Shown piece after piece: positions 2,130 to 62,935 of a stretch of DNA of 64,000 bases. The notes beneath the pieces were generated by a model that did not search any database, was not told where the DNA came from, and was given only the letters and a program-made list of their open reading frames with translations. Numbering within the stretch: position 1 is the first letter of the stretch; the number at the start of each line of letters is the position of its first letter. This stretch comes from a virus, in IMG/VR virus record IMGVR_UViG_3300045988_147571; one strand, 5' to 3'. A program made the position numbers and the translations under genes.

Positions 2130-3164
2130 TTAAATCTCTCCTAATACAATTCTTTCATTGACAGACATTACAAATTCTTCTATAGCTTTATAATTTGGTT
2201 TATCAGGCAATGAGGTATTCTTTGAATCATACTCAAGTCTTTTCTCTAACTCGTTTACCATTTCAAAAAATTCTGGGATAGGCTGACTGTTTGCATCCAA
2301 ATATTCACCATTACGTAGAGCCATAAGAAGCTCATGATCATCTTCTCTATATGTAATAATTTTGCCTTTTTCAAGGATATCAAAGCACATAAGATACAAT
2401 CTCACTAAATGGCACATATGCTTTCCTAACTTGTTATGTTCTATGGCATGCTTATTTCTCTTCCCAATTTTGGAATAATCCCTAACAATGTTTTTCATTT
2501 CGGCCCACATCCCCTGATAATCATTCAAAGGATAGTGCTTCAACTGGATATCCATAAATACTTCTGTTTCATAATCTTCCTGACTACCTTTATCTACATA
2601 AAGCTTTATTGCATCTTCTGGAAAATTGAAATACTTTTCAGGGAAAGTATAAAAAGCATTCATAATACTATTAAGAACATGCTGCATTCTTTCTTCTTGC
2701 CCTAGCTTTCTAGCAGCTTTATTATCGAGCCTTCTTGATTGGTTTGTAGCATAGCCTCCAAAAGAATAGATCGCTTTCTTAGATAAAAACATTTCAGCAT
2801 TATCAAGAAGTTCTTGACCAATTGGATGAATATAAAGATAATGTTCTGGTTTCAATCCTATCAGCTCAATTGTGTTTGGGTTGCAGTTTGACAATAGAGT
2901 TATCAATTTATTAAAAGAATAGATTGTTGTATCTGTTGTCTCTTCCGTTACTTGCTCAAAATTGTGTGTAGAGATTAAAATTTCTTCTTTTTTATTTAAA
3001 GCACAACCTCTAATATCCAAATCAGAGTTTTCTGTATCTGTACCATAGGCATGAGACCCACCTAAACCTAATAGAATTATGTTACTCCCCAGGTGCTCAT
3101 TCACTCTTAAGAAATCATAGTGTTTACTTTTCAATAACTTTTTGATTTTCTCTATTTTCATCAA
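2130..3164 (-). CDS. pol-beta-fold nucleotidyltransferase (RNA-ligase-associated RlaP-like, from memory)
   Basis: 344-aa ORF. GLGGSHAYGTDTENSDLDIRG matches the G-S ... D-x-D minimal nucleotidyltransferase signature. Confidence 0.7.
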   Translation of the reverse strand: MMKIEKIKKLLKSKHYDFLRVNEHLGSNIILLGLGGSHAYGTDTENSDLDIRGCALNKKEEILISTHNFEQVTEETTDTTIYSFNKLITLLSNCNPNTIELIGLKPEHYLYIHPIGQELLDNAEMFLSKKAIYSFGGYATNQSRRLDNKAARKLGQEERMQHVLNSIMNAFYTFPEKYFNFPEDAIKLYVDKGSQEDYETEVFMDIQLKHYPLNDYQGMWAEMKNIVRDYSKIGKRNKHAIEHNKLGKHMCHLVRLYLMCFDILEKGKIITYREDDHELLMALRNGEYLDANSQPIPEFFEMVNELEKRLEYDSKNTSLPDKPNYKAIEEFVMSVNERIVLGEI

Positions 3165-3651: not shown

Positions 3652-4035
3652 TCAGATAATCTGTAAGTTGTTATCACCAATAAGCCATGCAGAATCTAAA
3701 ATAAAATTTTCATATGAGTCACCGTTTTCACTCCAGAATTCATCTGATCCAACAGTCCAATCACCCAATGTTCCATCATTAAAACTATTATATAAATAAT
3801 CTGCTACATCTTCTAAAAACGCATCTACAGCCTTATCATAATCTCCTTTTCTTATTGACTCTTCTACATCCGGCTCAAGATCAATCCATTTATGCTGTTC
3901 AATCAAAAAAGATTTAGCGTTGTCTTTTACTTTCAGCAGTGAGTTTTTAATGTCTGTCAATGTTGCATCTTTCTTTTTTGCAATAATATAACTTGAAGAC
4001 GAACTATTAGTGACAAATCCTCTTCTTATTTTCAT
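3652..4035 (-). CDS. GFVTNSSSSS-motif family protein, copy 1
   Basis: N-terminus MKIRRGFVTNSSSSSYII. Paralogous N-terminus shared with 4035-4430, 26825-27592, 28410-28868 and 28865-29137. Confidence 0.7.
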   Translation of the reverse strand: MKIRRGFVTNSSSSSYIIAKKKDATLTDIKNSLLKVKDNAKSFLIEQHKWIDLEPDVEESIRKGDYDKAVDAFLEDVADYLYNSFNDGTLGDWTVGSDEFWSENGDSYENFILDSAWLIGDNNLQII

Positions 4036-4430
4036 TAACCATCTCTCCCTTCTCCTTCGGCAACTTTTATATCAGCAAATCCATTTACTTTCGTAATAGC
4101 ATTTATCGCTTCACTCATAGAGAAATCATAATCATATATAGCATCACCCCATTCATCATAATAGGCATCATTACGGTCCTCAATTACGATATATTCTCCA
4201 TCAGGGTGCTTTTCTAAAATGTCATCAACCCCATAAATGACCGCTCCGCACCAACTAGCACCAAGCTCACCGGACCAGTTTCTTTCATCATTCACACCAG
4301 TAACATCTAATACATCAAGATTGAACTGATCAATTATCTTCTGAGCTTTTTCTTTGTCAGCAATTCTTGCAAAGCAGATAATAAAACTACTAGAACTTGA
4401 ATTGGTAACAAATCCTTTTCGTATTTTCAT
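4035..4430 (-). CDS. GFVTNSSSSS-motif family protein, copy 2
   Basis: N-terminus MKIRKGFVTNSSSSSFII. TAATG stop/start overlap with copy 1. Confidence 0.7.
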   Translation of the reverse strand: MKIRKGFVTNSSSSSFIICFARIADKEKAQKIIDQFNLDVLDVTGVNDERNWSGELGASWCGAVIYGVDDILEKHPDGEYIVIEDRNDAYYDEWGDAIYDYDFSMSEAINAITKVNGFADIKVAEGEGRDG

Positions 4431-4632: not shown

Positions 4633-5778
4633 TTACATGTCCTCCATTGAATAAATCACTTTTTCTAAGCTTCTTTTTGATTTGAAACACTTCTTAAGTA
4701 AACACCACATAATTGCTTTTTCAGTGTCATCTTCATCTTCCCACTCATTTAAAACCACAGAAGTCTGTGTCCCATCTTTGAATCCTACAGTAGTTCTAAT
4801 TTTCCCTGTAGCAATATCTTTTGTTCTTCCTACAAATGAAACATCTTCTTTTGACAGGGTTTTATAAACCTGTTTATCAAATTCATCTTTAGGTGCAATA
4901 TATACATCAACACCTAAACCGTCTTTAATCTGACGTTCACAGCTTCTAAGCTCTTTATATAATGTGTGTCTACGATTGATAGTTTCTTGAGCTTTCTCTA
5001 AGGCTATAGCGATATCTTCTGGTGAGCAACATGTCATATAGTTATCCTCCTTGTAATTGAAATATGGCATTGGTTTCATTTTAAACTTATTTTTTGTATG
5101 TAAACGATCAATCCGTCTTTTAATTTCCGGATCATCGCAAATACCTGTACGAATATATCTATCTAATACTGCATAGGTAAATCCGAAGTTATCTTCATCT
5201 GATTTACCGCATAACCCATCTGATGGTGTTTTCTCTACATATTTTTTAGGCAGTCCTAAGTAATAACCAATTCTTTTTACTTCACTCTTTGTGAACTGTG
5301 CCAATGGAGCAAAGTCTCCTGCCGAGTCCCCATATCTGGTGGCGTATCCGATGTAATCCTCACTAAGGTTACAAGTATTAACTACTCTTCCATTATGTGA
5401 CTGTGATACTCCATACAGAGTGGCCATTCTTAGTCTAGGAGCGAGATTAATTAATGTCTGATCTGTTACATTAAATGCAGCATCAATTTGATCAATAATA
5501 TCATCATAAGCTGATCCAATATTAATAGTAAGATAATCAATGTTTAATACATGCTGGCAAATATCATAAGCCACACAAATATCATCCTGTTTATAATTTG
5601 GCATAATTACTCCAAGAACTTTGTCAGCTCCAACAGCTTCCACACATAACTTAGCAGCTACTAAAGAATCAACGCCACCGGAAATACCTACTATGAGATT
5701 ACATCCAGGACCATTCTCTTCTCTCCAATCTCTAATCCACTGAATACAATCATTTGTTGCTTTTTCTACATTAAACAT
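4633..5778 (-). CDS. nadE: NH3-dependent NAD+ synthetase with ~130-aa C-terminal extension
   Basis: GISGGVDSLVAAKL PP-loop (SGGxDS). Also YGDSAGDFAPL and EKTPSDGL motifs typical of NadE. At 381 aa it is longer than the ~270 aa usual for NadE. Confidence 0.85.
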   Translation of the reverse strand: MFNVEKATNDCIQWIRDWREENGPGCNLIVGISGGVDSLVAAKLCVEAVGADKVLGVIMPNYKQDDICVAYDICQHVLNIDYLTINIGSAYDDIIDQIDAAFNVTDQTLINLAPRLRMATLYGVSQSHNGRVVNTCNLSEDYIGYATRYGDSAGDFAPLAQFTKSEVKRIGYYLGLPKKYVEKTPSDGLCGKSDEDNFGFTYAVLDRYIRTGICDDPEIKRRIDRLHTKNKFKMKPMPYFNYKEDNYMTCCSPEDIAIALEKAQETINRRHTLYKELRSCERQIKDGLGVDVYIAPKDEFDKQVYKTLSKEDVSFVGRTKDIATGKIRTTVGFKDGTQTSVVLNEWEDEDDTEKAIMWCLLKKCFKSKRSLEKVIYSMEDM

Positions 5779-6271
5779 TCTGCTCCTCCAATTTCCACAG
5801 TTCTACTTTAAAACTACTTAATTCTTCTTCTATAATCTTATAAACCACTTCCCAGTCTGCTCCTCCTCTTCCGCAGCCTATTTTGTATGGGAGTGCAATG
5901 GTTGTCTTGTAAGGCCTGTTATCAGCATCAAACCAATAAACAGGTATTTGTTGTCGAATAAAATTTAATCCTTCTCGAAAAGCTTTAACATCAGTATATT
6001 GTTTCCCATCATATCCATACATGTCTTGTGCAAATAAGGATAATATTCCTTGATTTTTCCTTCTGATAAAGTACTCGTCATATGTTCCAAGAAGTAATTC
6101 TGGATTAAACTCACGTAATTTACAGACGTTTCTATAATGTATATAAATACCTTCGTCATAATCTCTTAATGCTTTAGCAACTCCAGTATTCATTTCTCCT
6201 TGGCAATTAACTTGATGAATTATATAGTCGGTCTGTGCATCTACAATGTTACCTTCAATAATTTTAATCAT
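5771..6271 (-). CDS. macro domain protein (ADP-ribose binding/hydrolase family)
   Basis: MIKIIEGNIVDAQTDYIIHQVNCQGEMNTGVAKAL resembles the macro-domain N-terminus (GDIT..DAIVN.AN....GGV..AI). I prefer the internal ATG at 6269-6271 because upstream codons would overlap gene 6282-6689. Its 3' end overlaps the nadE start by 8 nt. Confidence 0.75.
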   Translation of the reverse strand: MIKIIEGNIVDAQTDYIIHQVNCQGEMNTGVAKALRDYDEGIYIHYRNVCKLREFNPELLLGTYDEYFIRRKNQGILSLFAQDMYGYDGKQYTDVKAFREGLNFIRQQIPVYWFDADNRPYKTTIALPYKIGCGRGGADWEVVYKIIEEELSSFKVELWKLEEQNV

Positions 6272-6281
6272 AAATCTTTTC

Positions 6282-6689
6282 CTATAAATCCTGAAATGTA
6301 AACTTCTCGCCACAGGAGCAAATCACTTCTCCAATAGTTCCTATTGATGTTGGTGTAAAGCACCATGTAAGAGAACCGCCTATGCAACCATGTCCCATTG
6401 CTCTCTGTTTAGAAGTTTTCAGACCATGTTTCTCAGCATCATGTTTTAATTCCCACTCTGTGATTTTCTCTTGTTCTTTTTCTGAAATTGGAAATCCTCT
6501 ATATAAATCATCTTTTGCTTTTTTCAGTTCTGCTTCCATTCTCTGCATTTCTGAGTCTTTATAATGCTCATCTTTGAGCTTCTTGTTTTCTTCTCCTAAG
6601 TATTTAATTCGTTTTTCATAAGTATCTACTTTATCAATAATCCCCTGACAAAGATCTGAAACTGAATCCGTAAAATATGTTTTTCCCAT
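6282..6689 (-). CDS. hypothetical protein (coiled-coil N-half, Cys/His-rich C-half)
   Basis: 135-aa ORF. No motif recognised. Confidence 0.55.
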   Translation of the reverse strand: MGKTYFTDSVSDLCQGIIDKVDTYEKRIKYLGEENKKLKDEHYKDSEMQRMEAELKKAKDDLYRGFPISEKEQEKITEWELKHDAEKHGLKTSKQRAMGHGCIGGSLTWCFTPTSIGTIGEVICSCGEKFTFQDL

Positions 6690-6696
6690 TTTCGTT

Positions 6697-8154
6697 TCAC
6701 CTATTTAACCTTTCTCTAATGTCCTCAAATGTTTCTTTATTACAAACTTTCCCATCTACAAATACAGTTCTTAATGCTCCGTCACGAAATACATCATTAT
6801 ATCCATCTTTACACTGTAATTCTCCATTATCATCGTAATATATACGACAACACCCCTTATGAGATTTTTTCAAATGGCTCGTATCGGTTTTTGGATCTTT
6901 ATAAATCATAATTGGCTCGCCATTAACAATTCCATATGTAGCTTTCATAGCAATACCAAACATATCCCTAGTCACAACAACCATATATCCATCAGACTCT
7001 ACAACTGCTGAGAAGCAAAATGCTCCGACTCCGAATACGATATTGTTTGCAGCAAATCCTTTTCCTTTAAGTTCTTCCCATACCTGTTCTACATTATTAA
7101 GAGTACATCCATCTCCATAGATAATTCCAATGTGCGGGTCAAGCACTTTATATCCCTTGCTATTTACTGTTCCGCCAAATGTATTCCAAAGCTTTTCAAT
7201 TGTCTGTACAGCAATTTCTACCATATCTCCGGAATCTGGACGGACCAGAAGTTTGCCATTATGCTGCATGATTTCTTTTTTACAAGCTGGAAGAATATTA
7301 TTAATCATATTCCAGTAATCGTAAGTGTCAGACACCATACTAAAAGATGCATTAGGATATAGTTCTGTAAGCAATCTCTTTACAAATGTAATTTCATCAC
7401 CGTCTACTGCATAATTTGAAGCCATGCAGCTATGCTCTGTTGATACAGCACCAATTCCAATCTTTTCAGTCCAGCAACAAGCATCATAATATGTATCTAT
7501 ATAATCAATAGCAGGAATTGTGCTTGTCTTATCAAATGATAATAACCAAGCAGATGAACATCTTACGGCCTCTTCCATACAAGACATTCCTCTCATACCA
7601 AAGTCTGAGCAGGCCATTTCAGGTCTTAAAAAGTCATCACAGGTCATTTTATAGTAGTCATTTGCAAGTTCTCTATACATATGACCAATTGTTGCATGAG
7701 CACATGGTTTCCAGAGTTCAACCTGCAGGATACATTCGATCCACTGTACTACCCAAGCAAAATCTGGATGTGTGTTTGTAATTTCGATACATGGGATACC
7801 CATTGGTACTAATGTTCCCTCCGGGATAGCACGTATCTGAATTGGAAGATAACCTAATTTATGAAGTTTCATAATAGGCCCTAGGTCATAACTGTTTCCT
7901 AACTGTATATCCATACTGTATTTATATGTATGTTCAACTTCTGCTGCTGTTAATTCAAAAAAGTTTTTATTAAAATAATCAATTAGATATTCTTCAATAA
8001 ATGCCTGTAGACCAAAGAATACCATTTTGTTCTGATTCTTAAGCATTGATCTTCGTGGGGTCCAGTAAGATACTAATTTCGTCAGTCCTTTCGGATAGAT
8101 TTTATTATGGATCTGTTTATATGTGTCTGAGAGCAAAATTGCCATTGTATTCAT
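6697..8154 (-). CDS. nicotinamide phosphoribosyltransferase-like enzyme (NadV/NAMPT family; candidate Namat of NARP1)
   Basis: 485 aa. N-terminal LLSDTYKQIHNKIYPKG parallels the NAMPT TDSYK..H motif. Length and overall pattern are typical of type II PRTases. Confidence 0.85.
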   Translation of the reverse strand: MNTMAILLSDTYKQIHNKIYPKGLTKLVSYWTPRRSMLKNQNKMVFFGLQAFIEEYLIDYFNKNFFELTAAEVEHTYKYSMDIQLGNSYDLGPIMKLHKLGYLPIQIRAIPEGTLVPMGIPCIEITNTHPDFAWVVQWIECILQVELWKPCAHATIGHMYRELANDYYKMTCDDFLRPEMACSDFGMRGMSCMEEAVRCSSAWLLSFDKTSTIPAIDYIDTYYDACCWTEKIGIGAVSTEHSCMASNYAVDGDEITFVKRLLTELYPNASFSMVSDTYDYWNMINNILPACKKEIMQHNGKLLVRPDSGDMVEIAVQTIEKLWNTFGGTVNSKGYKVLDPHIGIIYGDGCTLNNVEQVWEELKGKGFAANNIVFGVGAFCFSAVVESDGYMVVVTRDMFGIAMKATYGIVNGEPIMIYKDPKTDTSHLKKSHKGCCRIYYDDNGELQCKDGYNDVFRDGALRTVFVDGKVCNKETFEDIRERLNR

Positions 8155-8522
8155 TATTTTTTATTCTCCTCTTTGTCGTTTACAACTTTGTCAATCTGGT
8201 CAGTAATGTAATCCACTACATCTTTTCCAGTTTTGCCAATTGTTTGAATATTATCTGGTGTGATTTCATTTACAACTGCCATCGTATATATTGTTTCTGT
8301 ATTAGGTGTCATGATTGTAATGATAGTCATTACAACACATCCGATAATTAATTTGCTAATAGTTTTTCTAAACTTAAATGGTTCGTTATATCCGGCTAAT
8401 CCGGCAAAGAAAGCACATATAGCAATAGATCCACATATTCCTGCGATCACTCCAAAAAATGTCGTTAAATTATCTGCTCTACTAGCGAAATAAATCAACC
8501 AAGGACTAATAATCGGTTTCAT
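8154..8522 (-). CDS. small membrane protein
   Basis: 122 aa with hydrophobic spans (FFGVIAGICGSIAICAFFAGLAG, LIIGCVVMTIITIM). Stop/start abuts the NAMPT-like gene at 8154. Confidence 0.6.
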   Translation of the reverse strand: MKPIISPWLIYFASRADNLTTFFGVIAGICGSIAICAFFAGLAGYNEPFKFRKTISKLIIGCVVMTIITIMTPNTETIYTMAVVNEITPDNIQTIGKTGKDVVDYITDQIDKVVNDKEENKK

Positions 8523-8535
8523 ATTTTTATCTCCC

Positions 8536-8925
8536 TTATAACTTTCCTATCAAACAACTCCAAGTAAAAGCAATCTGAAACATATGAGTTATCTGATCTT
8601 GAATTAGATTAATTTTCTTTTTATTGGCTTTCATATCATCTACTAACATATGTATCAATAAATTCATAACCAATAATAAAGGATTCCATTTACCGCCAAT
8701 AATCATAAGCGCAATTGTTGGTGGTAACATAATCATAAATGACCAACTAAAGCTATGCATAAACAACGCTGCTAAATAATCATATTTATATAATTTTCCT
8801 GGTGAATTCTTTTCCCACCATGATTTTTGTTTTGCAGATGCCAACCATCCTTGTAAATAATAATCGTCTACAATGTGGCAGAAAATCATTGTAAATAAGA
8901 TAAATATTTTATATCCAATATTCAT
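8536..8925 (-). CDS. membrane protein (DUF3307-like, from memory)
   Basis: 129 aa and multi-span hydrophobic. HIVDDYYLQ resembles the H..DF.LQ motif of DUF3307. Confidence 0.5.
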   Translation of the reverse strand: MNIGYKIFILFTMIFCHIVDDYYLQGWLASAKQKSWWEKNSPGKLYKYDYLAALFMHSFSWSFMIMLPPTIALMIIGGKWNPLLLVMNLLIHMLVDDMKANKKKINLIQDQITHMFQIAFTWSCLIGKL

Positions 8926-8958
8926 ATTTCACCTCCATGAAATCGAGAATTTATCGGA

Positions 8959-9141
8959 TTAAACTACATCATCTACTTCCAGGTCTGTTGTTTCGATAGC
9001 AATTTTAATAGTTGGCTTGTCTATTGCTTCACTGTTTGTTATTCTACTATACGATACAGTAATAAGATCTGATTCAGTATTAAATCTTTCAGCTACAACA
9101 CTTACAATATCTTTCTCATTTAATTCGTAAATTGTTTTCAT
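8959..9141 (-). CDS. hypothetical protein
   Basis: 60-aa ORF on the coding strand. Confidence 0.45.
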   Translation of the reverse strand: MKTIYELNEKDIVSVVAERFNTESDLITVSYSRITNSEAIDKPTIKIAIETTDLEVDDVV

Positions 9142-9241
9142 TTTTTATGTTCTCCTTTTATAATCATATCTCCAAGCTACAATATCTATATCGCTGCGCC
9201 ATTCGTCACATGAGTTAGGTTCTTCTATAAGTAACATAACT

Positions 9242-9541
9242 TTACTCATTATTATTTTCTCCTGTAATTTCTCTCAAACAATCATTCCAACCGATATCAT
9301 AACTTGGTGACTTTCCATTTCTTTCAAAGTGAAAACAACCCAACTTCTCTGGCAAGGGCTTCAGCAGGCGCAGTAGGCACCATCCTGGCCTCTCTTTAAG
9401 CTCTTTGATTTCATGTCTATTCAGCCTGCAATGCGATGTGGCATACTTTTTATTTATGCCTTCACCGATGTATTCACTTTCGCAAAACTGACAGCCGGCA
9501 CATATTCTTGGCTCGTTTATTAGTAATACTAATTTATTCAT
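9242..9541 (-). CDS. Cys-rich small protein (CxxC...RPxWC family)
   Basis: CAGCQFCE ... HCRL ... ERPGWCLL. Same pattern as 36370-36621 (CGKCKF ... WCRA ... IPNWCPL). Confidence 0.55.
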   Translation of the reverse strand: MNKLVLLINEPRICAGCQFCESEYIGEGINKKYATSHCRLNRHEIKELKERPGWCLLRLLKPLPEKLGCFHFERNGKSPSYDIGWNDCLREITGENNNE

Positions 9542-9556
9542 TTTCTCCTACTTCTT

Positions 9557-10363
9557 TTATCTAAACCTCTCAACAAGTTCAATCTTAGGACTTTCCAGAT
9601 TTGTCAAGATCGTATCTGTCGTATAAATCTTCTCAATCAGTCCATTGTTTTTCAGAAGCTCTCCATCATAAACAGTATTCTCACAATGAGTTACATAGAG
9701 ATAAATCTTACCTACACCGGCCTCTTTCAACTTTTTAGCACTATAATAAAAAGTACCTCCTTTGCTGCAGATATCATCTACAATAAGGATATCTTTACCT
9801 GGCAGTTGATTGATTTCTCCAGATAAATCTAAACCTTTAATTTCTCCGGTCTCCCAATCTCTATTCTTGATACCAAAAGTATATGGAAGATGTACTGCTG
9901 AAGAATATCTTTTCATAGCTCCAGCATCCGGATAAAACATCATAAGATTATTACTAGCAATCTTCTTAACAGCAGATTCAATCATTCGATTCGGGGATTC
10001 TACATGTACTTTATTAAATAATGCGGCAGATACATCAGAGTGAGGATCTAAAACTTCTACCTTATCAAAATGCAATGAATTAATAGTCTGAGCGAAGTAT
10101 TTTAAAGTGAATATCTCATTTTCTTTTTTAACTCGATCCATACGAGCATCTGGGACATAAGGCATGTATAAGTAAGGCATTACTTTATGATCCCAACAGT
10201 ATCGTGCAATATAAACTACTGCTGCGAATTCTTCCATTGAATCAAAAAACCATTCAATAATACTGCTATGCCATCCTCCAATAGATGATGGAATATTCTT
10301 AAATAAAAATGTTCCATCCGGATATTTATCAAGTTTGATTTCTACACCGTTTAATTTAATCAT
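9557..10363 (-). CDS. ribose-phosphate pyrophosphokinase-like protein (Prs family; candidate ADPR-pyrophosphokinase Adps of NARP1)
   Basis: 268 aa. ILIVDDICSKGGTFYYSAKKLKEAG is a PRPP-binding loop. VLDPHSDV and FYPDAGAMKRY parallel the Prs motifs DLH and SPD.G. Shorter than canonical Prs. Confidence 0.75.
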   Translation of the reverse strand: MIKLNGVEIKLDKYPDGTFLFKNIPSSIGGWHSSIIEWFFDSMEEFAAVVYIARYCWDHKVMPYLYMPYVPDARMDRVKKENEIFTLKYFAQTINSLHFDKVEVLDPHSDVSAALFNKVHVESPNRMIESAVKKIASNNLMMFYPDAGAMKRYSSAVHLPYTFGIKNRDWETGEIKGLDLSGEINQLPGKDILIVDDICSKGGTFYYSAKKLKEAGVGKIYLYVTHCENTVYDGELLKNNGLIEKIYTTDTILTNLESPKIELVERFR

Positions 10364-10718
10364 TCCAAATCTCCTTATAGTTTATTTTTCGCTGATCAAT
10401 GATGTTATCTCTTGTAAAAACAATCTCAAAATCTGAAATCTGCTTTGTACCAACAAGTTGAAACTCATAAACTTTATATCCAAGTTTCTGAAGTTCAAGA
10501 ACATCAGTAAGACTGAACCAGTGCTTTAATGTTTCTTTTGATGGTGCTGCTGAAAACCACCGTTTTCCATCTTCTCTGTATAGCTCATTGTCTTCCATTG
10601 GCAAATTTCTGCTTAATCCTTCTGAGAGCTGATCGAATACAGGATTCCAAGTTCCATCAAAGTTTCGCCACAGTCCATGTTTTTCAGCCTGATCTTCTAC
10701 TCTATATCCGAAAATCAT
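10356..10718 (-). CDS. hypothetical protein, translationally coupled between pncA and prs-like
   Basis: 120-aa ORF. Overlaps the prs-like start by 8 nt and begins 1 nt after the pncA stop. No motif recognised. Confidence 0.6.
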   Translation of the reverse strand: MIFGYRVEDQAEKHGLWRNFDGTWNPVFDQLSEGLSRNLPMEDNELYREDGKRWFSAAPSKETLKHWFSLTDVLELQKLGYKVYEFQLVGTKQISDFEIVFTRDNIIDQRKINYKEIWND

Positions 10719-10719
10719 T

Positions 10720-11253
10720 TTATTCTCCTTCTACTACATTGATCTGGCAACTTTTCATTACTTCCAGGGCAGCTTTATGCTTTTCCGGTGTAACTCCTGC
10801 ACAGCAGTTTGCGTATACTGTAATTTCTGTATTTGGATATAACATTCGTAGAACCAGAGCGTTTGACACCACACAAATATCTGTACAAACTCCCATTAAC
10901 TCAATTTCTTCCACTTCGTCATTTCTAAATACCATATTGAACATTTTGTCCCACGCATTATATCCAAATGTATACTTTCTTAAATAGAAACCTGCAATAT
11001 TTCTAAGTTCTGGGATAATCTGCCATCCATCTGAGTTGTCAATGCAATGTTTTACTGGAAGATATTTTCCTTCAAATGTTTCCATATAGTCTTCATCATG
11101 TGTATCTCTTGTAAAAAATGCAATATATCCTTCCGCTATAAGTTTTTCTGCACGTTCTTTTACATTGTCCACAATAGCAACTGCTTCTTTTGAACCAAGT
11201 GCGCCACGGATGAAATCATTTTGCATATCCACAATAATCAATGCTTTTGCCAT
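10720..11253 (-). CDS. pncA: nicotinamidase / isochorismatase-family hydrolase
   Basis: ALIIVDMQNDFIRGALG (catalytic Asp region) and GVCTDICVVSNA (catalytic Cys region). Confidence 0.85.
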   Translation of the reverse strand: MAKALIIVDMQNDFIRGALGSKEAVAIVDNVKERAEKLIAEGYIAFFTRDTHDEDYMETFEGKYLPVKHCIDNSDGWQIIPELRNIAGFYLRKYTFGYNAWDKMFNMVFRNDEVEEIELMGVCTDICVVSNALVLRMLYPNTEITVYANCCAGVTPEKHKAALEVMKSCQINVVEGE

Positions 11254-12356: not shown

Positions 12357-12381
12357 ATTCTCACCCCTTTCACTTTTTAAA

Positions 12382-12463
12382 TCCACCCAGAGAGACTCGA
12401 ACTCTCACGCTATTAAGCATTAGAACCTAAATCTAACGTGTCTGCCAATTCCACCATGAGTGG
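12382..12463 (-). tRNA. tRNA-Leu (anticodon UAG), long variable arm
   Basis: Folded by hand (rc): CCACTCA TG GTG GAATTGGCAGA CAC G TTAGA TTTAGGT TCTAA [variable arm] GAGAG TTCGAGT CTCTC TGGGTGG A. No encoded CCA. Confidence 0.85.
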
Positions 12464-12651
12464 ATGTTGCTGACAGATTTTCATCTGCCAGCTTACTTAT
12501 GAAAAAAACGATTATATCTACATTTATTCACTACTTACCAGCCTTGTACAAACTAAGAGCCAAGTATAATCATGCTCATAAACTTTTACCAAGGATTTGA
12601 TAAATCTTTATTCTTTATGCTTTATTCTTTAATCTTTAAACTGGGATAAAC

Positions 12652-13539: not shown

Positions 13540-13783
13540 AATAAAGACCTCCTGAATTTTAAATTTTAATAGTTACTATTTTCTTTTGTTCAACAGTAAA
13601 CGCTACTTTACTGTCAGTTCTCTTATGAACTTCTTATCATTCATTTCTGATAAGATCATCCCTCATAACTGATGAATCAGTTGCTTTCGCAGTACAATCG
13701 CTTTACTACTATTCACGTTTTTTATATGTTTCTGGGATCATTGGGATTTAAACCAATTTTGTTACCATCTCAGGATCACAAAT

Positions 13784-13857
13784 ATGATAAGGATGGACTC
13801 GAACCACCGACCTCCGCCGTGACAGGGCGGCGCTCTAACCAACTGAGCTACTTATCA
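13784..13857 (-). tRNA. tRNA-Asp (anticodon GUC)
   Basis: rc: TGATAAG TA GCTC AGTTGGTTA GAGC G CCGCC CTGTCAC GGCGG AGGTC GGTGG TTCGAGT CCATC CTTATCA. Confidence 0.88.
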
Positions 13858-14078
13858 CTTTTCATGCATGACCTGTCATGCTGCAGTCATAACAGGATTA
13901 TGTGTTCTTTGATCAGCTCAATTCCCTACATTTTCTCTAAAGCTAGTACGTTTCTACTTTGGAAACAATCTCAAAATGTCACTGTCTTTCCAGTGCCATC
14001 TGATTTTACGTCCTAATCAGCAACGGCTCTTTCATATTGAAAATGGAGCTATAAAAGTCACTCCTTCGTCAGGAGAAA

Positions 14079-14152
14079 TGGAAACTCTGGGACTCGAACC
14101 CAGGACCGACCGGTTATGAGCCGGTTGCTCTAACCAACTGAGCTAAGTTTCC
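14079..14152 (-). tRNA. tRNA with CAU anticodon (elongator Met or Ile-lysidine type; not initiator-like)
   Basis: rc: GGAAACT TA GCTC AGTTGGTTA GAGC A ACCGG CTCATAA CCGGT CGGTC CTGGG TTCGAGT CCCAG AGTTTCC A. Lacks the three consecutive G-C pairs of initiator tRNAs. Confidence 0.88.
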
Positions 14153-14568
14153 ATAGTGGGTGAACTTTGAAAACACCCACATATAAAAACGTAACAACTA
14201 TAATGATTGATTTGTAATCTCACAACTACACGAACAATCGTCACCGTTCCTACACCCTCCAAGCTCTTATCGGAACCTCTGCATCCTCATCGTGGATTAC
14301 ATTTGCTCTTCACTAACTACACTCATGCATCACATGACTATTACCTTGCCTCAAACCTACACCTCGTCAGCTTAAGCACATCTATATAAATGTTTCGTAC
14401 ATCCAAACCATTACTACCAATGTACTGTGTTCCCTTCTTCGAACAGGTTCCAGTTATTAAACCATCCAAATTTTCACTTAAGTTTTATCTATGTTCGCCA
14501 TGAACATAAGTAGGTATACCTTAGTTCTAACAGTTACCTCTTTGGCCTTCAGAGTTAACTTAGAACTA

Positions 14569-14640
14569 CGGGGTAGATGGGGTTCGAACCCATGAATGCT
14601 GGAGTCAAATTCCAGAGCCTTACCGCTTGGCTACTACCCT
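14569..14640 (-). tRNA. tRNA-Gln (anticodon UUG)
   Basis: rc: AGGGTAG TA GCCAAGCGGTAAGGCT CTGGA ATTTGAC TCCAG CATTC ATGGG TTCGAAC CCCAT CTACCCC G. Closely parallels the E. coli tRNA-Gln layout, including an unpaired 1-72 position. Confidence 0.85.
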
Positions 14641-15818: not shown

Positions 15819-16721
15819 TCAATGCCCTTTAACATCTGCTTCATGTAATAGCATCACATCTGAAAACATCTGTTTTCCAATTAAATACTTATCTTTATTC
15901 TTTGCCTTGTTTGATTGCGACCATGATAAATAGGGATGCATATGATAATAAATCAAATTTGCTGTATAAAAAGCATCATATATATCTTTTCCTGTAACCA
16001 CACCGGAAAAATCAAAACATGTTAAATATTCATAAGCTCCAACACAATGATGCTGATAATAGTGACAGTAATCATCCTCTTCACCTTTTCCATTAATTCT
16101 TGATTTAGTGAAAAGCTTTCCAATATCATGGAGACTGGCTGCCACCCATAAGTTTTCTTCTCTAGGTACCCCATCTGAAACCTTTTTCAGATGTTCATAA
16201 AGAGTCAAAGAGTGATGTGGATTCTCTTGATCGAAGTCACGAGCCATATCTATTAATTCTTTTATATCTTTATGATCATCTTGTATAACTCTAATTTCAT
16301 TGAACCCTTCATGGTACATTGGTGGAGAAAATACTTTTCTCATTCTGGTAATCACTTCGTCTGGAACTGAATTTTCCCTTTTTGAGTTATCCTCTAAACA
16401 TTTTTCATATGTTTTCAAAAATACAACGCATGTTTTATAAACATGTTTAGGAACTGTTTTTAAAAAATGCACTCTTCTTTTCTTTACCAAATTAGTAGCA
16501 TCATAAATAACCGAATGCATTTTCAAATCTTCCAGTATTCTACGATGCAGTTCTTCAAATACTTTACTGTTGTCTGCGTCATCATAATTATCTCCATACA
16601 TTTCTTCTCTGAGCTTATCAGAAGAGTGCACTATATAATCAGGATGAGTTTCTGAATACTCTTTAGCCCATGTACTTTTACCGGAAGCAGGTAAACCTAC
16701 CAGCATAATTAATTCATTCAT
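15819..16721 (-). CDS. P-loop kinase fused to HD phosphohydrolase domain (polynucleotide end-healing type)
   Basis: MNELIMLVGLPASGKSTWA (P-loop) then HHSL...ASLHDIGK...HEADVKGH (HD domain). I chose the start at 16721 (TAATG overlap with the upstream stop). Confidence 0.75.
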   Translation of the reverse strand: MNELIMLVGLPASGKSTWAKEYSETHPDYIVHSSDKLREEMYGDNYDDADNSKVFEELHRRILEDLKMHSVIYDATNLVKKRRVHFLKTVPKHVYKTCVVFLKTYEKCLEDNSKRENSVPDEVITRMRKVFSPPMYHEGFNEIRVIQDDHKDIKELIDMARDFDQENPHHSLTLYEHLKKVSDGVPREENLWVAASLHDIGKLFTKSRINGKGEEDDYCHYYQHHCVGAYEYLTCFDFSGVVTGKDIYDAFYTANLIYYHMHPYLSWSQSNKAKNKDKYLIGKQMFSDVMLLHEADVKGH

Positions 16722-17356
16722 TATGTAATCTCCTCTATTTCTTTGCAAATCTTCTCTGCTATTTCTTTAGATATGTACTTCTGATTAAAAAACTCTTGTC
16801 CAATATCTGATCTAATTTGATATTTTTGATTATCTGGATTAGGCTTCCCTTCTCCGTTTACAATTTGAGGCAACGAAGCAGTCTGAAGATAATCTATATA
16901 GTATAAATCCTCTTTTATGCTTCTTCGTTTCTCTCTAATCACTTTCCTAATTTTATATGCCCAATATCCAGAAGTAACATTCAGTTTATTAAATTCTATA
17001 TAGTGATCAAGATCCTGAGATATAAGCTCCAGTTCCTTTAGCTGTTTTTCTAAAGGTTTTCTATTACCTAATATTTCTTTAATAGGCAATATGCTGTCAT
17101 CTATTTTCTTTTTATAATCACCAATCTCTACAAGAGATTTATTCTGCTGTACAAAACCAACTCTCTCATCAACTGATGTTACTTTCCAAGGGGCGTATAT
17201 GCTTAAATTTTTAGGAATTGTTGATATCCTGTTTAAAGCTTTCGGTACATTGTCAAACTTCTGAGCAGATTTTAAATCCACTACATGAGGAGGATTTCCA
17301 TGTTTAAATACCAAATAATTTCCAGGATATTTTTCACTTTCTAAAACATATCTCAT
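16721..17356 (-). CDS. hypothetical protein
   Basis: 211-aa ORF. First gene downstream of the tandem promoters at 17383-17527. Confidence 0.6.
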   Translation of the reverse strand: MRYVLESEKYPGNYLVFKHGNPPHVVDLKSAQKFDNVPKALNRISTIPKNLSIYAPWKVTSVDERVGFVQQNKSLVEIGDYKKKIDDSILPIKEILGNRKPLEKQLKELELISQDLDHYIEFNKLNVTSGYWAYKIRKVIREKRRSIKEDLYYIDYLQTASLPQIVNGEGKPNPDNQKYQIRSDIGQEFFNQKYISKEIAEKICKEIEEIT

Positions 17357-17473: not shown

Positions 17474-17527
17474 AGTATACCATAGTCATTTCACCTTGTC
17501 AACACTTTTTTTACAAACTTGTTTATA
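17474..17527 (-). promoter_or_regulatory. second tandem promoter with the same upstream element, embedded in the ligA 3' end
   Basis: rc reads AAACAAGTTTGTAAAAAAAGTG TTGACA (17497-17502) aggtgaaatgactatgg (17 nt) TATACT (17474-17479). Confidence 0.65.
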
Positions 17528-19536
17528 AATTCTTTTTCTGAAATAATCGGGATACCAAGCTGCATAGCTTTCACATTCTTGCTACTCTTTGACAATGTAT
17601 CATTATTAATAAGGTAGTTAGTTTTTTTAGTTACTGATCCTGTGACTTTACCTCCAAGAGACTCTATTTTTTCTACTAGAGCTGCTCTATTGGCAAACTC
17701 GGTGAGTGTCCCAGTAATACAGAATATTGCCCCATTCAAACCATCTTTTACAGTCTCCTGAGAAATTTCTTCAAACTGGAATTCCGCAGCAAGCTCAGTT
17801 ATGTATCTTTGATTTTCTTCAAAATAATTTTTCAAAGAAGAAGCTTTCGCAAAACCAAAGTCTTCCAAACATGTAAAATCATACTGAGAATCCATATCTT
17901 CAATGAAACTATCAAAAGCTGTCTTTAATCCTTTTTCTCTTGCTCTCTTCTCTTCAACAGTGTTTAGCTGCTTACTAACACTTCGACCGATTAAATGTAT
18001 GGACAGCCCATAAAGGAATTTAGGCAGAGTTGTCTTGCGGCATTTTTCTATTGATTCCAGGATTTTATCAACTTTTTTTGCTCCTAGCCCTTGTAATGTC
18101 ACTAACATTCCCCGGCAGTCTTTTAGATAAAATAAGTCTAAAGGCCCTTTAATAAATTCTTTCTCTATTAATAGACTCAGAGTAGATTTAGAAAGCCCTG
18201 TAATATCATGTGCTTCTTTGCTTACAAAAGTACATAATTCACCAAGAAGTTTCCCTTTACATTCAAGGTTCATGCACTGAAGCTCTTCTGTCTCATTTTC
18301 ACCTGTAATTTTTACATGACCACCACAAATAGGGCACTTGTCAGGCACAGTAAACAATTTGTCACCGTTTCTGGTCAAATTCTCTGCAATCTGCGGAATG
18401 ATCATGTTTGCCTTATATACCGTAATCGTATCTCCTACTGACAGTTCATAACTTTTGAAAATACTCACATTATGTAAGCTAGCTCTTTCAACAATAGTAT
18501 CATCTATTTCAACCGGATCAAAAACTGCCACAGGTGTCAACTGTCCAGTCTTTCCCATGCTCCATTCCACATCTCTAATTACTGTTTCAAACTTATCATC
18601 TGCAAATTTATACGCCAATTGTGATCGAACATGATGTGATGTGTTTCCTAAGCTTTCACTATAATCAATGTCATCATATGAAAATACGATTCCATCAATA
18701 GGAACATCTTTTTCTCTTGCGATTTCTCTAAGTTTTTTAATATTCTCTTCAATATTATCAACTTTTACCCAAGGGACCACTTCAAATCCTAGCAGATCTA
18801 ATATCTGTAATCTTTTCATGAAACTATTTCCATCTATTCCACGAACGGCCTTCCAAGCAACGAACTTGATTTTTCTTTCTTTTGTAACGGAGTTATCAAG
18901 CTGTCTAACAGAGCCAGCAGTTAAATTTCTGATATTCTTAATACCATTATCTTTAATATATTTTTCTAATTCTTCACCAAAAAGTCCCTTTCTTTCTCCA
19001 TCTTTTTTCAGATCAATATCTTTTAGCTCTTTAAGATGAGTATAATGATGGATCTCCATGACAGCTTCCCCATCAATTACCACTTCATCTCTATAAGGAA
19101 TTTTCTTTGGAACATTTACAAAACTGTTTACTGTATGTAAAACATTTTCTCCGATGATTCCATTCCCCCTAGTTTCTGCAGCAACCAATTTACCATCTAT
19201 ATACTTTACTGAAATAGTAAGTCCATCCATTTTTAACATAGCCAATCCTGGCAAACCATTCATAAAACTTTCAACTTCATTTATATCTTTTGTTTTGTCT
19301 AAGGACAACATTGGATGATCATGTTCGACTTTTTCTAACTCACTAACTGTTTCTGAGCCAACATTGATAGTGGGACTGTTGGCTAAAATAATACCTGTAA
19401 CTTTCTCAAGTTCTTTAAGTCGATCATATTTTTTATCATATTCATAATCAGAAATTAGAGAAGTATCTTCCATATAATACGCATGAGCATATATGTTTAA
19501 TTCTTCCACTAATTCACGCATTTCTTTTAAAAGCAC
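17491..19536 (-). CDS. ligA: NAD+-dependent DNA ligase
   Basis: 681 aa. Adenylation motif LKMDGLTISV (KxDG), Zn finger CPICGGHV...C.NLEC, C-terminal BRCT-like GAIFCITGTL. Confidence 0.92.
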   Translation of the reverse strand: MLLKEMRELVEELNIYAHAYYMEDTSLISDYEYDKKYDRLKELEKVTGIILANSPTINVGSETVSELEKVEHDHPMLSLDKTKDINEVESFMNGLPGLAMLKMDGLTISVKYIDGKLVAAETRGNGIIGENVLHTVNSFVNVPKKIPYRDEVVIDGEAVMEIHHYTHLKELKDIDLKKDGERKGLFGEELEKYIKDNGIKNIRNLTAGSVRQLDNSVTKERKIKFVAWKAVRGIDGNSFMKRLQILDLLGFEVVPWVKVDNIEENIKKLREIAREKDVPIDGIVFSYDDIDYSESLGNTSHHVRSQLAYKFADDKFETVIRDVEWSMGKTGQLTPVAVFDPVEIDDTIVERASLHNVSIFKSYELSVGDTITVYKANMIIPQIAENLTRNGDKLFTVPDKCPICGGHVKITGENETEELQCMNLECKGKLLGELCTFVSKEAHDITGLSKSTLSLLIEKEFIKGPLDLFYLKDCRGMLVTLQGLGAKKVDKILESIEKCRKTTLPKFLYGLSIHLIGRSVSKQLNTVEEKRAREKGLKTAFDSFIEDMDSQYDFTCLEDFGFAKASSLKNYFEENQRYITELAAEFQFEEISQETVKDGLNGAIFCITGTLTEFANRAALVEKIESLGGKVTGSVTKKTNYLINNDTLSKSSKNVKAMQLGIPIISEKEFINKFVKKVLTR

Positions 19537-19888: not shown

Positions 19889-20800
19889 TTATAAATAACT
19901 ATAAAATTTATTTTTAAGAGTTCCTTTGCCATAAGAACTTATATTATAATTTGAACTAACCATTTCAACATACTGGCTTTCAAAGATATCTTCCTTAGAA
20001 ACATTATATTTCTTCATTATTTCTCTAAACTGCTCTACAATTCCGGCTGTATAGAGTCGAGGAATAGTCAGATACGGAATATTAAGCTCTTTTCTAAGCG
20101 CAATTAACCTATTTGTCAGTCTTAGATTTAAAGCTTCTAATGAATCACTACGTGTATTATTCCTGGAGTTAACAATATTCCCCTTCATACTTAATAAAGA
20201 AGCAGTTCCAGTAAAAGATATATACTCCTCCTCTTGTGAACTAACTTTAGCCAAGTCTACCAGCGTCTCTGACAAAGTTTTTTCCTCTCCGTTTTCGAAA
20301 GTAAGGATATTACCATTCAACTTACTTATTTTAGCTCTTAAAAGCTCACCGGGGGCTTCTGTTCTTACTCCTTCAAACAAAGCCAGAATTAAAAATTTAT
20401 CAGAATAGTTTCTAATTTTAGAAATATCCTTTAAAACCTGTTCTCTGCTGGGACACACCGCTCTCTCCTTATTAAGATATTTCTGTAGACTTTCAATTTC
20501 CATATTTATTTCATCATAGTGATTTATGTTGTCTATAGATATGTTGCAGGAACAACACCAGTCAGCATATTTCCGTAAAACACTTATATTTTTCCTTAAG
20601 GCATTTATTGATGAGGCTGCAAATGTAGACAACAATTTATCTATTTCAGGAAAAGTAAAATCACATAAGTCCTTGTTAAGTAAGTCCTCATAGTCTTCCG
20701 TTTTGTTAAAAAGAGCTTTCGCACTTTGTGGAGTTTGTCCAAGATCTTCTACTACATGTCGCAGATATTCTTTCTTCCGTTCTTCATTATACATAATCAC
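19889..20800 (-). CDS. tyrosine-recombinase-like protein without obvious catalytic H-x-x-R / Tyr (possible regulator)
   Basis: 303 aa. LILALFEGVRTEAPGELL resembles the recombinase Arg-I box. I could not find the later catalytic boxes. Confidence 0.4.
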   Translation of the reverse strand: MIMYNEERKKEYLRHVVEDLGQTPQSAKALFNKTEDYEDLLNKDLCDFTFPEIDKLLSTFAASSINALRKNISVLRKYADWCCSCNISIDNINHYDEINMEIESLQKYLNKERAVCPSREQVLKDISKIRNYSDKFLILALFEGVRTEAPGELLRAKISKLNGNILTFENGEEKTLSETLVDLAKVSSQEEEYISFTGTASLLSMKGNIVNSRNNTRSDSLEALNLRLTNRLIALRKELNIPYLTIPRLYTAGIVEQFREIMKKYNVSKEDIFESQYVEMVSSNYNISSYGKGTLKNKFYSYL

Positions 20801-22045: not shown

Positions 22046-23053
22046 TTATTTCAATAAACTATTTACATATTTAGCAGCTTCAGCATTAATGGGCTTTCGA
22101 ACGATGTATCTTTGTGTCGTGTCAGGTCGAGAATGATTCATTAATTGCTGTACATATGCAATGTCTCCTGTCTGATCATATAATAATGTAGCAAAAGTAC
22201 TTCTAAATTTATGAGGAGTAATATGTTTTTCAAAATCTGCGGTATATGCCTTAACTAAATCTCTCACTGATTTGTCAGTGATTCTTGTTCGTCTGTTAGA
22301 AATAAAAAGAGCATTACAATCTCTTTTATTCAAAAGTTCTGCACGTTTTATTACCCAATTTCTTAAAATATCCATACTATCATCATCAAGTTCACATTCA
22401 TAAGTGTTTCTGCGCTTATCAGTAACCCTAATAATCTTCTGATCCCAGAATATATCTTCCATATTAAGTTCTGTAAGCGCAGTAACACGAATACCAGTTA
22501 CCATAAGAAGAGTAAATATAGCAAGGTTTCTTTCCTTCCATGCTTCTCTTCTTGCGTTGGCCCTTTTTGTACCAATAGAATTATCATTTATTCTTTCAAC
22601 AACTTTTTTCAACTCTGCGGCTGTCATTGCAACCTGTTTAAGCGGATCTTTTACAGAAACTCTTTTTATGCCACAATCAAAAGGGCTCTCTGAAATCATT
22701 TTTCTGCTTAACAAATAATCAGCAAATGATTTTAATGCCGTATAAGTAGTTGCTTTAGCACTATCTGAACTATATCCTCCATCTCTTCCTCTTAAGCAAG
22801 AGAGATAAGAGTTTACATTGTCAATAGTCATTGCTCCATTACAATCTTCTATTGACTCTATAAACCCGTTTTCTTTCAAATAGTTCATAAACCTAACAGC
22901 CGTCATAGTATAATTTTGCGCAGTAAGATATTCGCATGAATTGAATAGACCATTATAATAACCAGTGAAATATTGTGGCTTATCCCTAAGCAATGTTCTC
23001 ATCTTGCTTTCTGATTTATATTTATGTTCTTCTCTTCCTTTCATGCTATTCAC
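22046..23053 (-). CDS. tyrosine recombinase / integrase
   Basis: LMVTGIRVTALTEL (Arg I), ITPHKFRSTFATLL (H-x-x-R), LMNHSRPDTTQRYI (His...Tyr). Confidence 0.88.
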   Translation of the reverse strand: MNSMKGREEHKYKSESKMRTLLRDKPQYFTGYYNGLFNSCEYLTAQNYTMTAVRFMNYLKENGFIESIEDCNGAMTIDNVNSYLSCLRGRDGGYSSDSAKATTYTALKSFADYLLSRKMISESPFDCGIKRVSVKDPLKQVAMTAAELKKVVERINDNSIGTKRANARREAWKERNLAIFTLLMVTGIRVTALTELNMEDIFWDQKIIRVTDKRRNTYECELDDDSMDILRNWVIKRAELLNKRDCNALFISNRRTRITDKSVRDLVKAYTADFEKHITPHKFRSTFATLLYDQTGDIAYVQQLMNHSRPDTTQRYIVRKPINAEAAKYVNSLLK

Positions 23054-28409: not shown

Positions 28410-28868
28410 CTAATGATGACTAATAGCAGCAAGACAACAATTCATATTCGGTGCAACATGATGTTCAAGGGTTGAATACCTAAAACCATCCTCGTCTGAA
28501 TAATTAATCTCTACAAATACAGAGTACCCTTGCATATCTTCCTCTAACTCAGACACCCTATCTGTTATTGCTTTATTGAGCTTATTCTGGAACTCTTTCG
28601 TTTCTCGTATTTCGAACTTCTTATCATAAGGTACATCAAGTCTATACTCTAAATCCCAGAGAGTATCATAATAAATTTCTTTTGAGTACCCTTTCAAAAC
28701 TTCATCTTTAGTCAATTTTGTAGCTCTCATTACATCTTCCAGGACTTCATCAAAATATTCTTTGAGATCCTCTGCTTCCAGTTCTTTTTTGATATTCTCT
28801 TCGCTTGTAAAACCAAGAATGAAACTACTACTGCTGCTATTAGTTACGAATCCTTTTCTAATTTTCAT
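28410..28868 (-). CDS. GFVTNSSSSS-motif family protein, copy 4
   Basis: I prefer the start MKIRKGFVTNSSSSSFILGF at 28868, which forms an ATGA overlap with the upstream stop. Confidence 0.7.
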   Translation of the reverse strand: MKIRKGFVTNSSSSSFILGFTSEENIKKELEAEDLKEYFDEVLEDVMRATKLTKDEVLKGYSKEIYYDTLWDLEYRLDVPYDKKFEIRETKEFQNKLNKAITDRVSELEEDMQGYSVFVEINYSDEDGFRYSTLEHHVAPNMNCCLAAISHH

Positions 28869-39705: not shown

Positions 39706-39706
39706 C

Positions 39707-62908: not shown

Positions 62909-62935
62909 AAATATAAGGATTACAAGGAGAAACAT

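Follow-up and report, generated by a model that had tools for sequence, protein, structure and literature searches.

Gene content of the island

We analysed a 64,000-nucleotide stretch of viral DNA (IMG/VR record IMGVR_UViG_3300045988_147571), the whole of which is called the window below, and focused on an island of NAD+ metabolism genes located on its minus strand (positions 4633–11253). Five open reading frames (ORFs) of this island encode, in the direction of transcription, a PncA-type nicotinamidase, a relative of the phosphoribosyl pyrophosphate (PRPP) synthetase Prs, a relative of the nicotinamide phosphoribosyltransferase NAMPT, a macro-domain protein and the NAD+ synthetase NadE. A preliminary description made from the sequence alone had named the same genes; profile searches recovered all five at the expected positions and bore out their identities. 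That description had also called the genes mostly translationally coupled, a fair account, as the intergenic spacing ranges from -8 to +33 nt with a single exception of 100 nt.

The nicotinamidase (10720..11253, minus strand, as for all genes of the island; 177 aa) matches PF00857 (E = 1.4e-28), and its best solved relative is the nicotinamidase of P. horikoshii (1im5/1ilw; 62 bits for 1im5). In the alignment to 1im5, the catalytic residues D9/K93/C127 and the zinc ligands D50/H52/H69 are all matched. The Prs-like protein (9557..10363; 268 aa) corresponds to phrog_619 (3.6e-71) and just exceeds the cut-off of PF14572 (27.5 bits for a cut-off of 27), while its score with TIGR01251 (95 bits) lies under the cut-off of 113. 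The NAMPT-like transferase (6697..8154; 485 aa), which we denote Namat*, matches NF006629 (468.6 bits; cut-off 405), PF04095 and PF18127. The macro-domain protein (5771..6271) was visible to NCBIfam (DarG-macro, 2.4e-12) and to PHROGs (phrog_335 'phosphatase', 1.7e-35 to 3.7e-35) only, with no Pfam match at 0.01. Its ORF extends to a GTG at 6313 and homology begins at the ATG at 6271, which is likely to be the true start. Finally, the NH3-dependent NadE (4633..5778; 381 aa; PF02540, 9.6e-48; TIGR00552, 162.7 bits for a cut-off of 63.65) carries the PP-loop SGGVDS at residues 33–38 (5665–5682). Its catalytic domain covers approximately residues 1–240 and is followed by a C-terminal extension of about 140 aa (4633–5055) without Pfam match, seen only in near relatives.

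The ORFs of the window of at least 70 aa (a few short ones omitted) were scanned against Pfam in concatenated chunks, so that the negatives given next apply to 64 kb, the full genome being probably 140–180 kb long. Among these ORFs we detected no nicotinamide mononucleotide adenylyltransferase (NMNAT; CTP_transf_like), as previously described, and neither Nudix protein, PncB nor NadD. PnuC and NadR-like matches were likewise absent from the window; we rejected NARP3, which consists of PnuC and a NadR-like bifunctional enzyme (PMC13464706), as an explanation of the island, to which it is unrelated. The NAD+-dependent DNA ligase previously placed about 6 kb away was confirmed as LigA (17491–19536), 6.2 kb off the island. 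A search for a near-identical annotated phage gave nothing beyond a faecal contig that lacks annotation and overlaps by 9%, and promoter and terminator scans gave counts at the level of shuffled sequences.

Placement of the Prs-like protein in the Adps clade

The NAD+ reconstitution pathway NARP1 is composed of two proteins, Adps and Namat, and its role in counter-defence has been demonstrated (Osterman et al., 2024; bioRxiv 10.1101/2024.02.11.579819). The Adps of phage SPbetaL1 is active on ADP-ribose (ADPR) and gave no product in a PRPP-synthetase assay. The preliminary description had proposed that a phylogeny should place the Prs-like protein either with Adps or with true PRPP synthetases. 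In our neighbour-joining tree, genuine Prs proteins are split with maximal bootstrap (100/100) from an Adps-like group that includes the biochemically characterised SPbetaL1 Adps, other phage Adps and the window protein. The latter scores 243.7 bits with a hidden Markov model (HMM) of Adps from classical NARP1 contexts versus 52.8 bits with an HMM of true Prs, with which the SPbetaL1 Adps itself scores 59 bits. Several motifs are common to the window protein and Adps: DPHS (at residue 106 in the window protein), K-x-R-[ND]-x-x-TGEI (K166 in IKNRDWETGEI) and a DDICSKGGT loop (at residue 196) devoid of the Thr present in the ribose-5-phosphate (R5P) loop of Prs. By all these sequence comparisons, the protein encoded at 9557–10363 is a member of the Adps clade.

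A Namat-like transferase with a modified nicotinamide pocket

Compared with the SPbetaL1 Namat (9w5x), the transferase reaches 393 bits, as opposed to about 202 bits with human NAMPT. This solved phage Namat is its closest match in sequence, and the core pair of the island is NARP1-like. The earlier reading of the two genes as a NARP1-type pair, and not as Prs plus NadV, is thus upheld by both partners. The choice between Namat and NadV had been posed for the transferase alone as well; the protein is Namat-like by score and lacks the Asp that binds the amide.

In the published Namat structure, nicotinamide is contacted by F189, R192, D215, A242, R306, D13′ and Y15′; Asp215 is hydrogen-bonded to the amide, and the D215A mutation cuts NAD+ output from nicotinamide 8.1-fold. 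The equivalent residue of NAMPT, Asp219, also makes a hydrogen bond to the amide and sets the specificity for nicotinamide, and according to reviews D219S switches substrate affinity. In the window transferase, Ser211 (7522–7524) occupies the position of Asp215 and Ser238 (7441–7443) that of Ala242, while the remaining five pocket residues of Namat are unchanged. In addition, Lys209 (7528–7530) is found at the position of Gly213.

The region that clamps the adenine moiety was also compared. Phe379 (7018–7020) corresponds to the adenine-stacking Phe392 of Namat, where NAMPT has a Gly. At the two sites where bona fide NAMPT/NadV proteins have Asp219 and this Gly, the window protein therefore has Ser211 and Phe379. 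It departs from the Namat signature GS-X-phi-X-phi-X-phi-TRD, which forms the selectivity-clamp helix, reading GAFCFS, a 10-aa insertion (residues 383–392; 6979–7008) and VVTRD. Positions 1–6 of the motif are retained, as are the aromatic residue at 392 and the TRD, and the aromatic residue at position 7 has no clear counterpart. The clamp is intact in the clade of phage Phass-1 (GAYTYQYVTRD), which conforms to the Namat motif.

The pocket changes co-occur with PncA and NadE

Homologues of the transferase were examined in 306 loci, comprising 226 viral and reference-phage loci and 80 loci from bacterial or archaeal genomes (L numbers below designate these loci). HMMs of PncA, NadE, Adps and macro proteins were run against every ORF, and loci with at least 5 kb of flank on each side were considered flank-complete. 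Transferases with Ser/Ala instead of Asp215 and Ser instead of Ala242 were termed non-Asp, and those with Asp/Ala classical. Relatives of the non-Asp type, 185 viral and 80 genomic, combine Ser/Ala at 215 with Ser at 242 in all cases, and position 213 is Lys, Arg or Asn in every member. The catalytic residues and those contacting the ribose-phosphate are invariant, with no difference between the non-Asp and classical groups; the aromatic residue at 392 is kept in 184/184 viral and 80/81 genomic copies.

PncA and NadE are both present in all 152 flank-complete viral non-Asp loci, whereas neither occurs in any of the 25 flank-complete viral classical loci. The apparent viral exceptions each miss only the gene expected on the truncated side of the contig. 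In bacteria, 38 of the 40 flank-complete non-Asp loci encode PncA, Adps and NadE. Adps homologues were detected in 1,540 of 50,697 phage records and PncA homologues in only seven, all from the human gut. The gene set is retained despite a rearranged order in MT835544 (Adps, transferase, macro, NadE, PncA) and in Phass-1, which uses an alternative genetic code and whose transferase is 33–37% identical to that of the window depending on the method; it holds down to 31% identity. Since the same set recurs in hundreds of related loci, the arrangement is far beyond chance. PncA and NadE had previously been considered add-ons to a NARP1 core, a view that is probably wrong given their presence in every flank-complete viral non-Asp locus.

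We then grouped the transferases by gene context alone and, after dereplication at 80% identity, compared 23 linked with 24 classical representatives. Fifteen of the 466 alignment columns share no residue between the two groups. Column 242 ranks first, the set also contains columns 215, 213, 238–240, 184, 185, 187 and 304, and most of the 15 columns lie in or beside the pyridine pocket. This co-variation of the pocket with PncA and NadE suggests that PncA, Adps, the transferase and NadE form one obligate four-enzyme pathway. Nicotinamide, the substrate formerly assigned to the transferase, is probably the wrong one, judging from a Ser211/Ser238 pocket that tracks PncA and NadE.

The minimal operon and its accessory genes

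In L164, L173, L224, L074, L076 and most bacterial loci, the genes of PncA, Adps, the transferase and NadE follow one another with no other gene in between, and no other family is present in more than 4 of the 23 representative lineages. The island described earlier as a single set can accordingly be divided into four conserved genes and a group of lineage-specific accessories, among them its two membrane proteins and its small ORFs; so few lineages share these accessories that we regard them as lineage-specific additions.

Four of the small ORFs lie between the Adps and transferase genes of the window: one encoding a 99-aa Cys-rich protein (9242..9541) without family match and found in few relatives; one of 60 aa (8959..9141) without Pfam match, for which one related locus has a counterpart; one encoding a 129-aa DUF3307 membrane protein (8536..8925; PF11750, 1.6e-5; phrog_2470 'membrane protein') restricted to near relatives; and one encoding a 122-aa hydrophobic protein (8154..8522; phrog_3878, unknown function) present in 4 of the 23 representative lineages. 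A 135-aa ORF (6282..6689) follows the transferase gene; it showed only a sub-threshold similarity to Tox-REase-2 (0.0058) and has homologues in 59 loci, all inside the wider clade of the window. The 120-aa ORF located between PncA and Adps (10356..10718) belongs to phrog_23161 and phrog_1106, both of unknown function, gave no Pfam match at E ≤ 0.1 and has homologues in 8 related loci only. RyR-domain glycosidases of cyclic ADPR are another published insert in NARP1 loci; we considered and rejected such an enzyme (RyDEP) for this ORF, which has no match to RyR or to any other Pfam domain. Its single-sequence AlphaFold2 model has a predicted confidence (pLDDT) of 42, too low for use.

Ten accessory ORFs of related islands, taken from among the largest or most frequently recurring, were analysed with Pfam; they include RlaP, a CCA-adding enzyme, Band_7 and an adenylosuccinate-synthetase-like protein. 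We rejected the idea of a further conserved enzyme hidden in these islands, as NadD, NMNAT and PncB are all missing from these 10 ORFs. The adenylosuccinate-synthetase-like gene (L011:7692-8816; PF00709, 2.1e-38) is inserted between PncA and Adps in L011, L047 and L052, the nearest relatives of the window phage, and is absent from the island of the window. It could encode a PurZ-type enzyme, hinting at 2-aminoadenine DNA in these relatives.

The macro-domain protein and NARP1-AP

Of the 152 flank-complete viral non-Asp loci, 115 encode a macro homologue. In the NARP1-AP system, reported in a preprint of January 2026 (bioRxiv 10.64898/2026.01.28.702374), a macro phosphatase, Adpp, is encoded in the operon of 15% of NARP1 phages; it converts ADPR-1′′-phosphate to ADPR and counters the aRES defence. 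The window macro protein and the product of the gene at the Adpp position in Vibrio phage Cody have the same best PHROG, phrog_335 (1e-50 for Cody), and are 27% identical in BLASTP (window macro versus Cody gp176, E = 8e-9). The layout of Cody, Adps-phosphatase-Namat, is that described for phage Gary, the model phage of NARP1-AP. From these similarities, the window macro protein is classified as Adpp-type, encoded in a NARP1 operon. Its embedding in such an operon, once presented as undescribed, has thus already been published; the part of the island that is undescribed is the combination of PncA and NadE with a remodelled transferase.

A bacterial counterpart linked to NrtR

The genome hits come mostly from gut Bacillota (Lachnospiraceae, Ruminococcus, Roseburia, Christensenella); the system is strongly conserved and widespread among these bacteria and their phages. 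An ordinary chromosomal context surrounds the operon in two isolate genomes, one from Pseudoruminococcus massiliensis and one from Clostridium sp., as well as in a metagenome-assembled genome (MAG) of Mogibacterium (1.4-Mb contig). In these three genomes, the next gene after the operon encodes NrtR (NUDIX plus NrtR_WHD), a repressor that ADPR releases from DNA. The P. massiliensis locus (L265) encodes a glutamine-dependent, two-domain form of NadE. Overall, NrtR-like genes were detected in 44 of the 80 genome loci, directly after NadE in 26 of them, and in none of the 226 viral and reference-phage loci. In Clostridium acetobutylicum, NrtR is encoded in the operon nrtR-pncA-pncB-nadD-nadE (PMC2330246); relative to this order, Adps and the transferase occupy the places of pncB and nadD.

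A putative deamidated NAD+ reconstitution pathway

Considering the observed gene identities, clades, pocket substitutions, co-occurrence, minimal operons and NrtR linkage together, we propose, with slightly more confidence than doubt, that the island of this gut phage codes for a deamidated form of NARP1, complete in itself, that would rebuild NAD+ in four steps from the two products of its cleavage by defence systems, ADPR and nicotinamide. PncA would hydrolyse nicotinamide to nicotinate and NH3; Adps would convert ADPR and ATP to ADPR pyrophosphate (ADPR-PP); the transferase would join nicotinate to ADPR-PP, giving nicotinic acid adenine dinucleotide (NaAD) and pyrophosphate; and NadE would form NAD+ from NaAD, ATP and NH3. 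When present, the Adpp-type macro protein could feed the pathway by converting ADPR-1′′-phosphate to ADPR. Adps and the transferase would in this scheme stand in for PncB and NadD of the Preiss-Handler route, and the four genes would be the exact set needed to turn both products of an NADase into NAD+ without any host enzyme. Two features of gene context point to ADPR as the input, the frequent presence of the macro gene and the linkage of the bacterial copies to the ADPR-sensing NrtR.

A broader version of this proposal, for which we see the case as evenly balanced, is that the reaction of nicotinate with ADPR-PP to give NaAD defines a fourth kind of NAD+ reconstitution, and that an ADPR-induced, NrtR-controlled operon native to gut Bacillota was repeatedly captured, without its repressor, by large phages facing NAD+-depleting immunity. 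A role of the island in countering NAD+-depleting defence, already suggested in the preliminary description, is plausible.

Several points weigh against this proposal. All substrates and products are inferred from comparative evidence, and the detour through deamidated intermediates would spend one extra ATP for no demonstrated advantage. The D219S data are second-hand, from reviews, and the assignment of Ser/Thr to the two diagnostic columns in nicotinate phosphoribosyltransferases rests on inspection of PncB motifs (GTS, T-x-x-H) together with the D219S literature; the hhalign alignment of the Namat family with E. coli PncB covered the C-terminal part only. The window clade has both the 10-aa clamp insertion and a Met instead of Arg40, so the use of ADPR-PP is less certain in this clade than in that of Phass-1. 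Moreover, Namat enzymes retain PRPP activity in vitro, so nicotinic acid mononucleotide (NaMN) could be formed. Two flank-complete bacterial loci, both from MAGs, depart from the four-gene pattern: in L246 the transferase is accompanied by macro and NadE genes but not by PncA and Adps, and L298 lacks NadE. Finally, the non-Asp transferases form a single clade (95/100), so the link between pocket and context may go back to one event and the counts are not independent; the association may reflect a single origin followed by long retention.

The most serious competitor is a Preiss-Handler route with replacement parts, in which the transferase would make NaMN from nicotinate and PRPP, the Prs-like protein would supply PRPP, and the host NadD and phage NadE would complete the synthesis, ADPR being no substrate at all. 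The pocket changes and the linkage to PncA and NadE fit nicotinate use equally well here; the in vitro PRPP activity and the broken clamp motif of the window clade also suit this route, and the required host enzyme is, to our knowledge, present in virtually all bacteria. We nevertheless consider it unlikely, given that the Prs-like protein, a firm member of the Adps clade, no longer has the Thr of the Prs R5P loop, that its characterised relative from SPbetaL1 used ADPR and yielded nothing in the PRPP-synthetase assay, and that the aromatic residue at 392, a Gly in NAMPT, is kept, within a full adenine clamp in the Phass-1 clade. Both the Adpp-type macro gene and NrtR indicate ADPR, and no nadD was found in these operons, unlike in the classical clostridial one.

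The NARP1-like core pair could instead suggest an ordinary NARP1-AP, whose transferase makes NAD+ from nicotinamide and ADPR-PP, accompanied by unrelated helpers, PncA and NadE boosting host salvage in parallel. Ser/Ala at 215 might permit some use of nicotinamide, the D215A enzyme being still active although about 8-fold down. However, this leaves unexplained why, without exception in the viral loci, PncA and NadE accompany transferases that have lost Asp215 and gained Ser242, and why gene context is best predicted by the columns of the pocket. PncA would furthermore consume the substrate of the transferase, PncA and NadE make no pathway without PncB and NadD, and among phage records, of which some 1,500 have Adps homologues, PncA appears in only seven overall. 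This reading is, in our opinion, quite improbable. We give slightly less credit still to the idea that the phage has captured a housekeeping operon from bacteria whose part in counter-defence is small or nil and which raises the supply of NAD+ to phage enzymes such as the NAD+-dependent ligase. It draws on the chromosomal, NrtR-regulated operons of gut Bacillota and on the proximity of LigA, 6 kb away. Yet NrtR has been lost in all viral and reference-phage loci, the phage copies often add an Adpp phosphatase known to act against aRES, and counter-defence by classical NARP1 is proven. In any case this idea concerns the purpose and not the mechanism of the island, and is compatible with the deamidated four-step pathway that we favour.

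Other features of the window

Four tRNA genes (Leu, 12381–12464; Asp, 13783–13858; Met, 14078–14153; Gln, 14569–14640) are located on the minus strand a short way upstream of the island, where ORFs are otherwise sparse. The surroundings of the island also have the appearance of an RNA/tRNA-repair neighbourhood (2130–3164, 15819–16748 and 17491–19536), with an RlaP-type nucleotidyltransferase, a fusion of an AAA_33 kinase and an HD domain, and the NAD+-dependent LigA; the CCA-adding enzyme of relatives joins this set (L163:10805-13259; L049:12175-12939). The neighbourhood may be a second counter-defence module, one that consumes NAD+.

Two repeated gene families were noticed. Five paralogues (3652–4035, 4035–4430, 26825–27592, 28410–28883 and 28865–29137) share a nearly identical N-terminus, M-K-I/L-R-x-G-F-V-T-N-S-S-S-S-S-F/Y, and form a multigene family. 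The second family, of proteins of approximately 80–100 aa with a conserved tail resembling hydrophobic-x-x-R-R, has at least 12 copies in tandem blocks (33238–34300, 38425–39741 and 45302–47110). At about position 53000 the coding strand flips from minus to plus and both GC skew and AT skew change sign; this switch could be a point of divergent transcription or a replication origin. Two tyrosine-recombinase-like genes (19889–20800 and 22046–23053), one with an MrpR_N_CB and one with a Phage_integrase domain, lie near each other in a genome that otherwise looks like that of a large virulent-type phage. The window also encodes a SPASM (radical-SAM-type) protein (32181–33263), two DUF5688 proteins (25865–26806 and 48761–49255), and PhoH and a ClpP protease (61910–63553).

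Relation to known NAD+ pathways and implications

The island resembles NARP1 in having an Adps-clade kinase within 10 genes of a Namat-like transferase with conserved core and aromatic residue at 392, in a phage setting and with an expected ADPR input. It differs from it by the Ser/Ala215, Ser242 and basic or Asn residue at 213 of the transferase, by the clamp insertion of the window clade, and by the obligate PncA and NadE; NaAD, and not NAD+, is what this transferase is predicted to make. With NARP1-AP it shares a phrog_335 macro protein in the operon, presumably converting ADPR-1′′-phosphate to ADPR, but the published system has three genes and uses nicotinamide, whereas the macro protein is here an optional fifth member beside PncA and NadE. 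Like the Preiss-Handler operon of C. acetobutylicum (PMC2330246), the island has PncA first and NadE last, nicotinate and NaAD as expected intermediates, and NrtR-linked cellular copies; with Adps and the transferase replacing PncB and NadD, the donor would be ADPR-PP made from ADPR, instead of PRPP and then ATP.

Chromosomal pairs of a Prs paralogue with NadV or Namat under the ADPR-sensing NrtR are known from the prs-nadV operons of Shewanella and Acinetobacter (PMC2330246) and from the bacterial classical NARP1 of Paenibacillus foliorum (PMC12774641). These are two-gene systems without PncA or NadE, and the classical-type transferases sampled keep Asp215 and Ala242. Two further phage-encoded means of rebuilding NAD+ against NAD+-depleting defence, NARP2 (Nampt plus an NMNAT of the NadM/NatV type) and NARP3 (PMC13464706), differ in chemistry and genes, none of the NMNAT, Nudix, PnuC or NadR domains having been found in the window.

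In the openly searchable literature (subscription journals being outside this scope), we found no paper combining NARP1 with NadE, and NARP1 and nicotinic acid appear together only in the paper on NARP3, where they stand in the legend to a generic pathway. The Phass-1 genome paper names a nicotinamidase without discussing a pathway.

If the proposed pathway is correct, it would add to NAD+ metabolism a reaction new to enzymology and a further branch, in which ADPR is recycled via deamido-NAD. The NARP1-type annotation would then cover at least two chemically different pathways, separable by two pocket residues, and the combination of Ser/Ala215 and Ser242 would provide a simple rule to re-annotate hundreds of database entries. 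The bacterial operons of the Adps/Namat type, whose function is called unresolved in the literature, would be given a physiological role, and the counter-defence repertoire of abundant human-gut phages would be broader than currently described.

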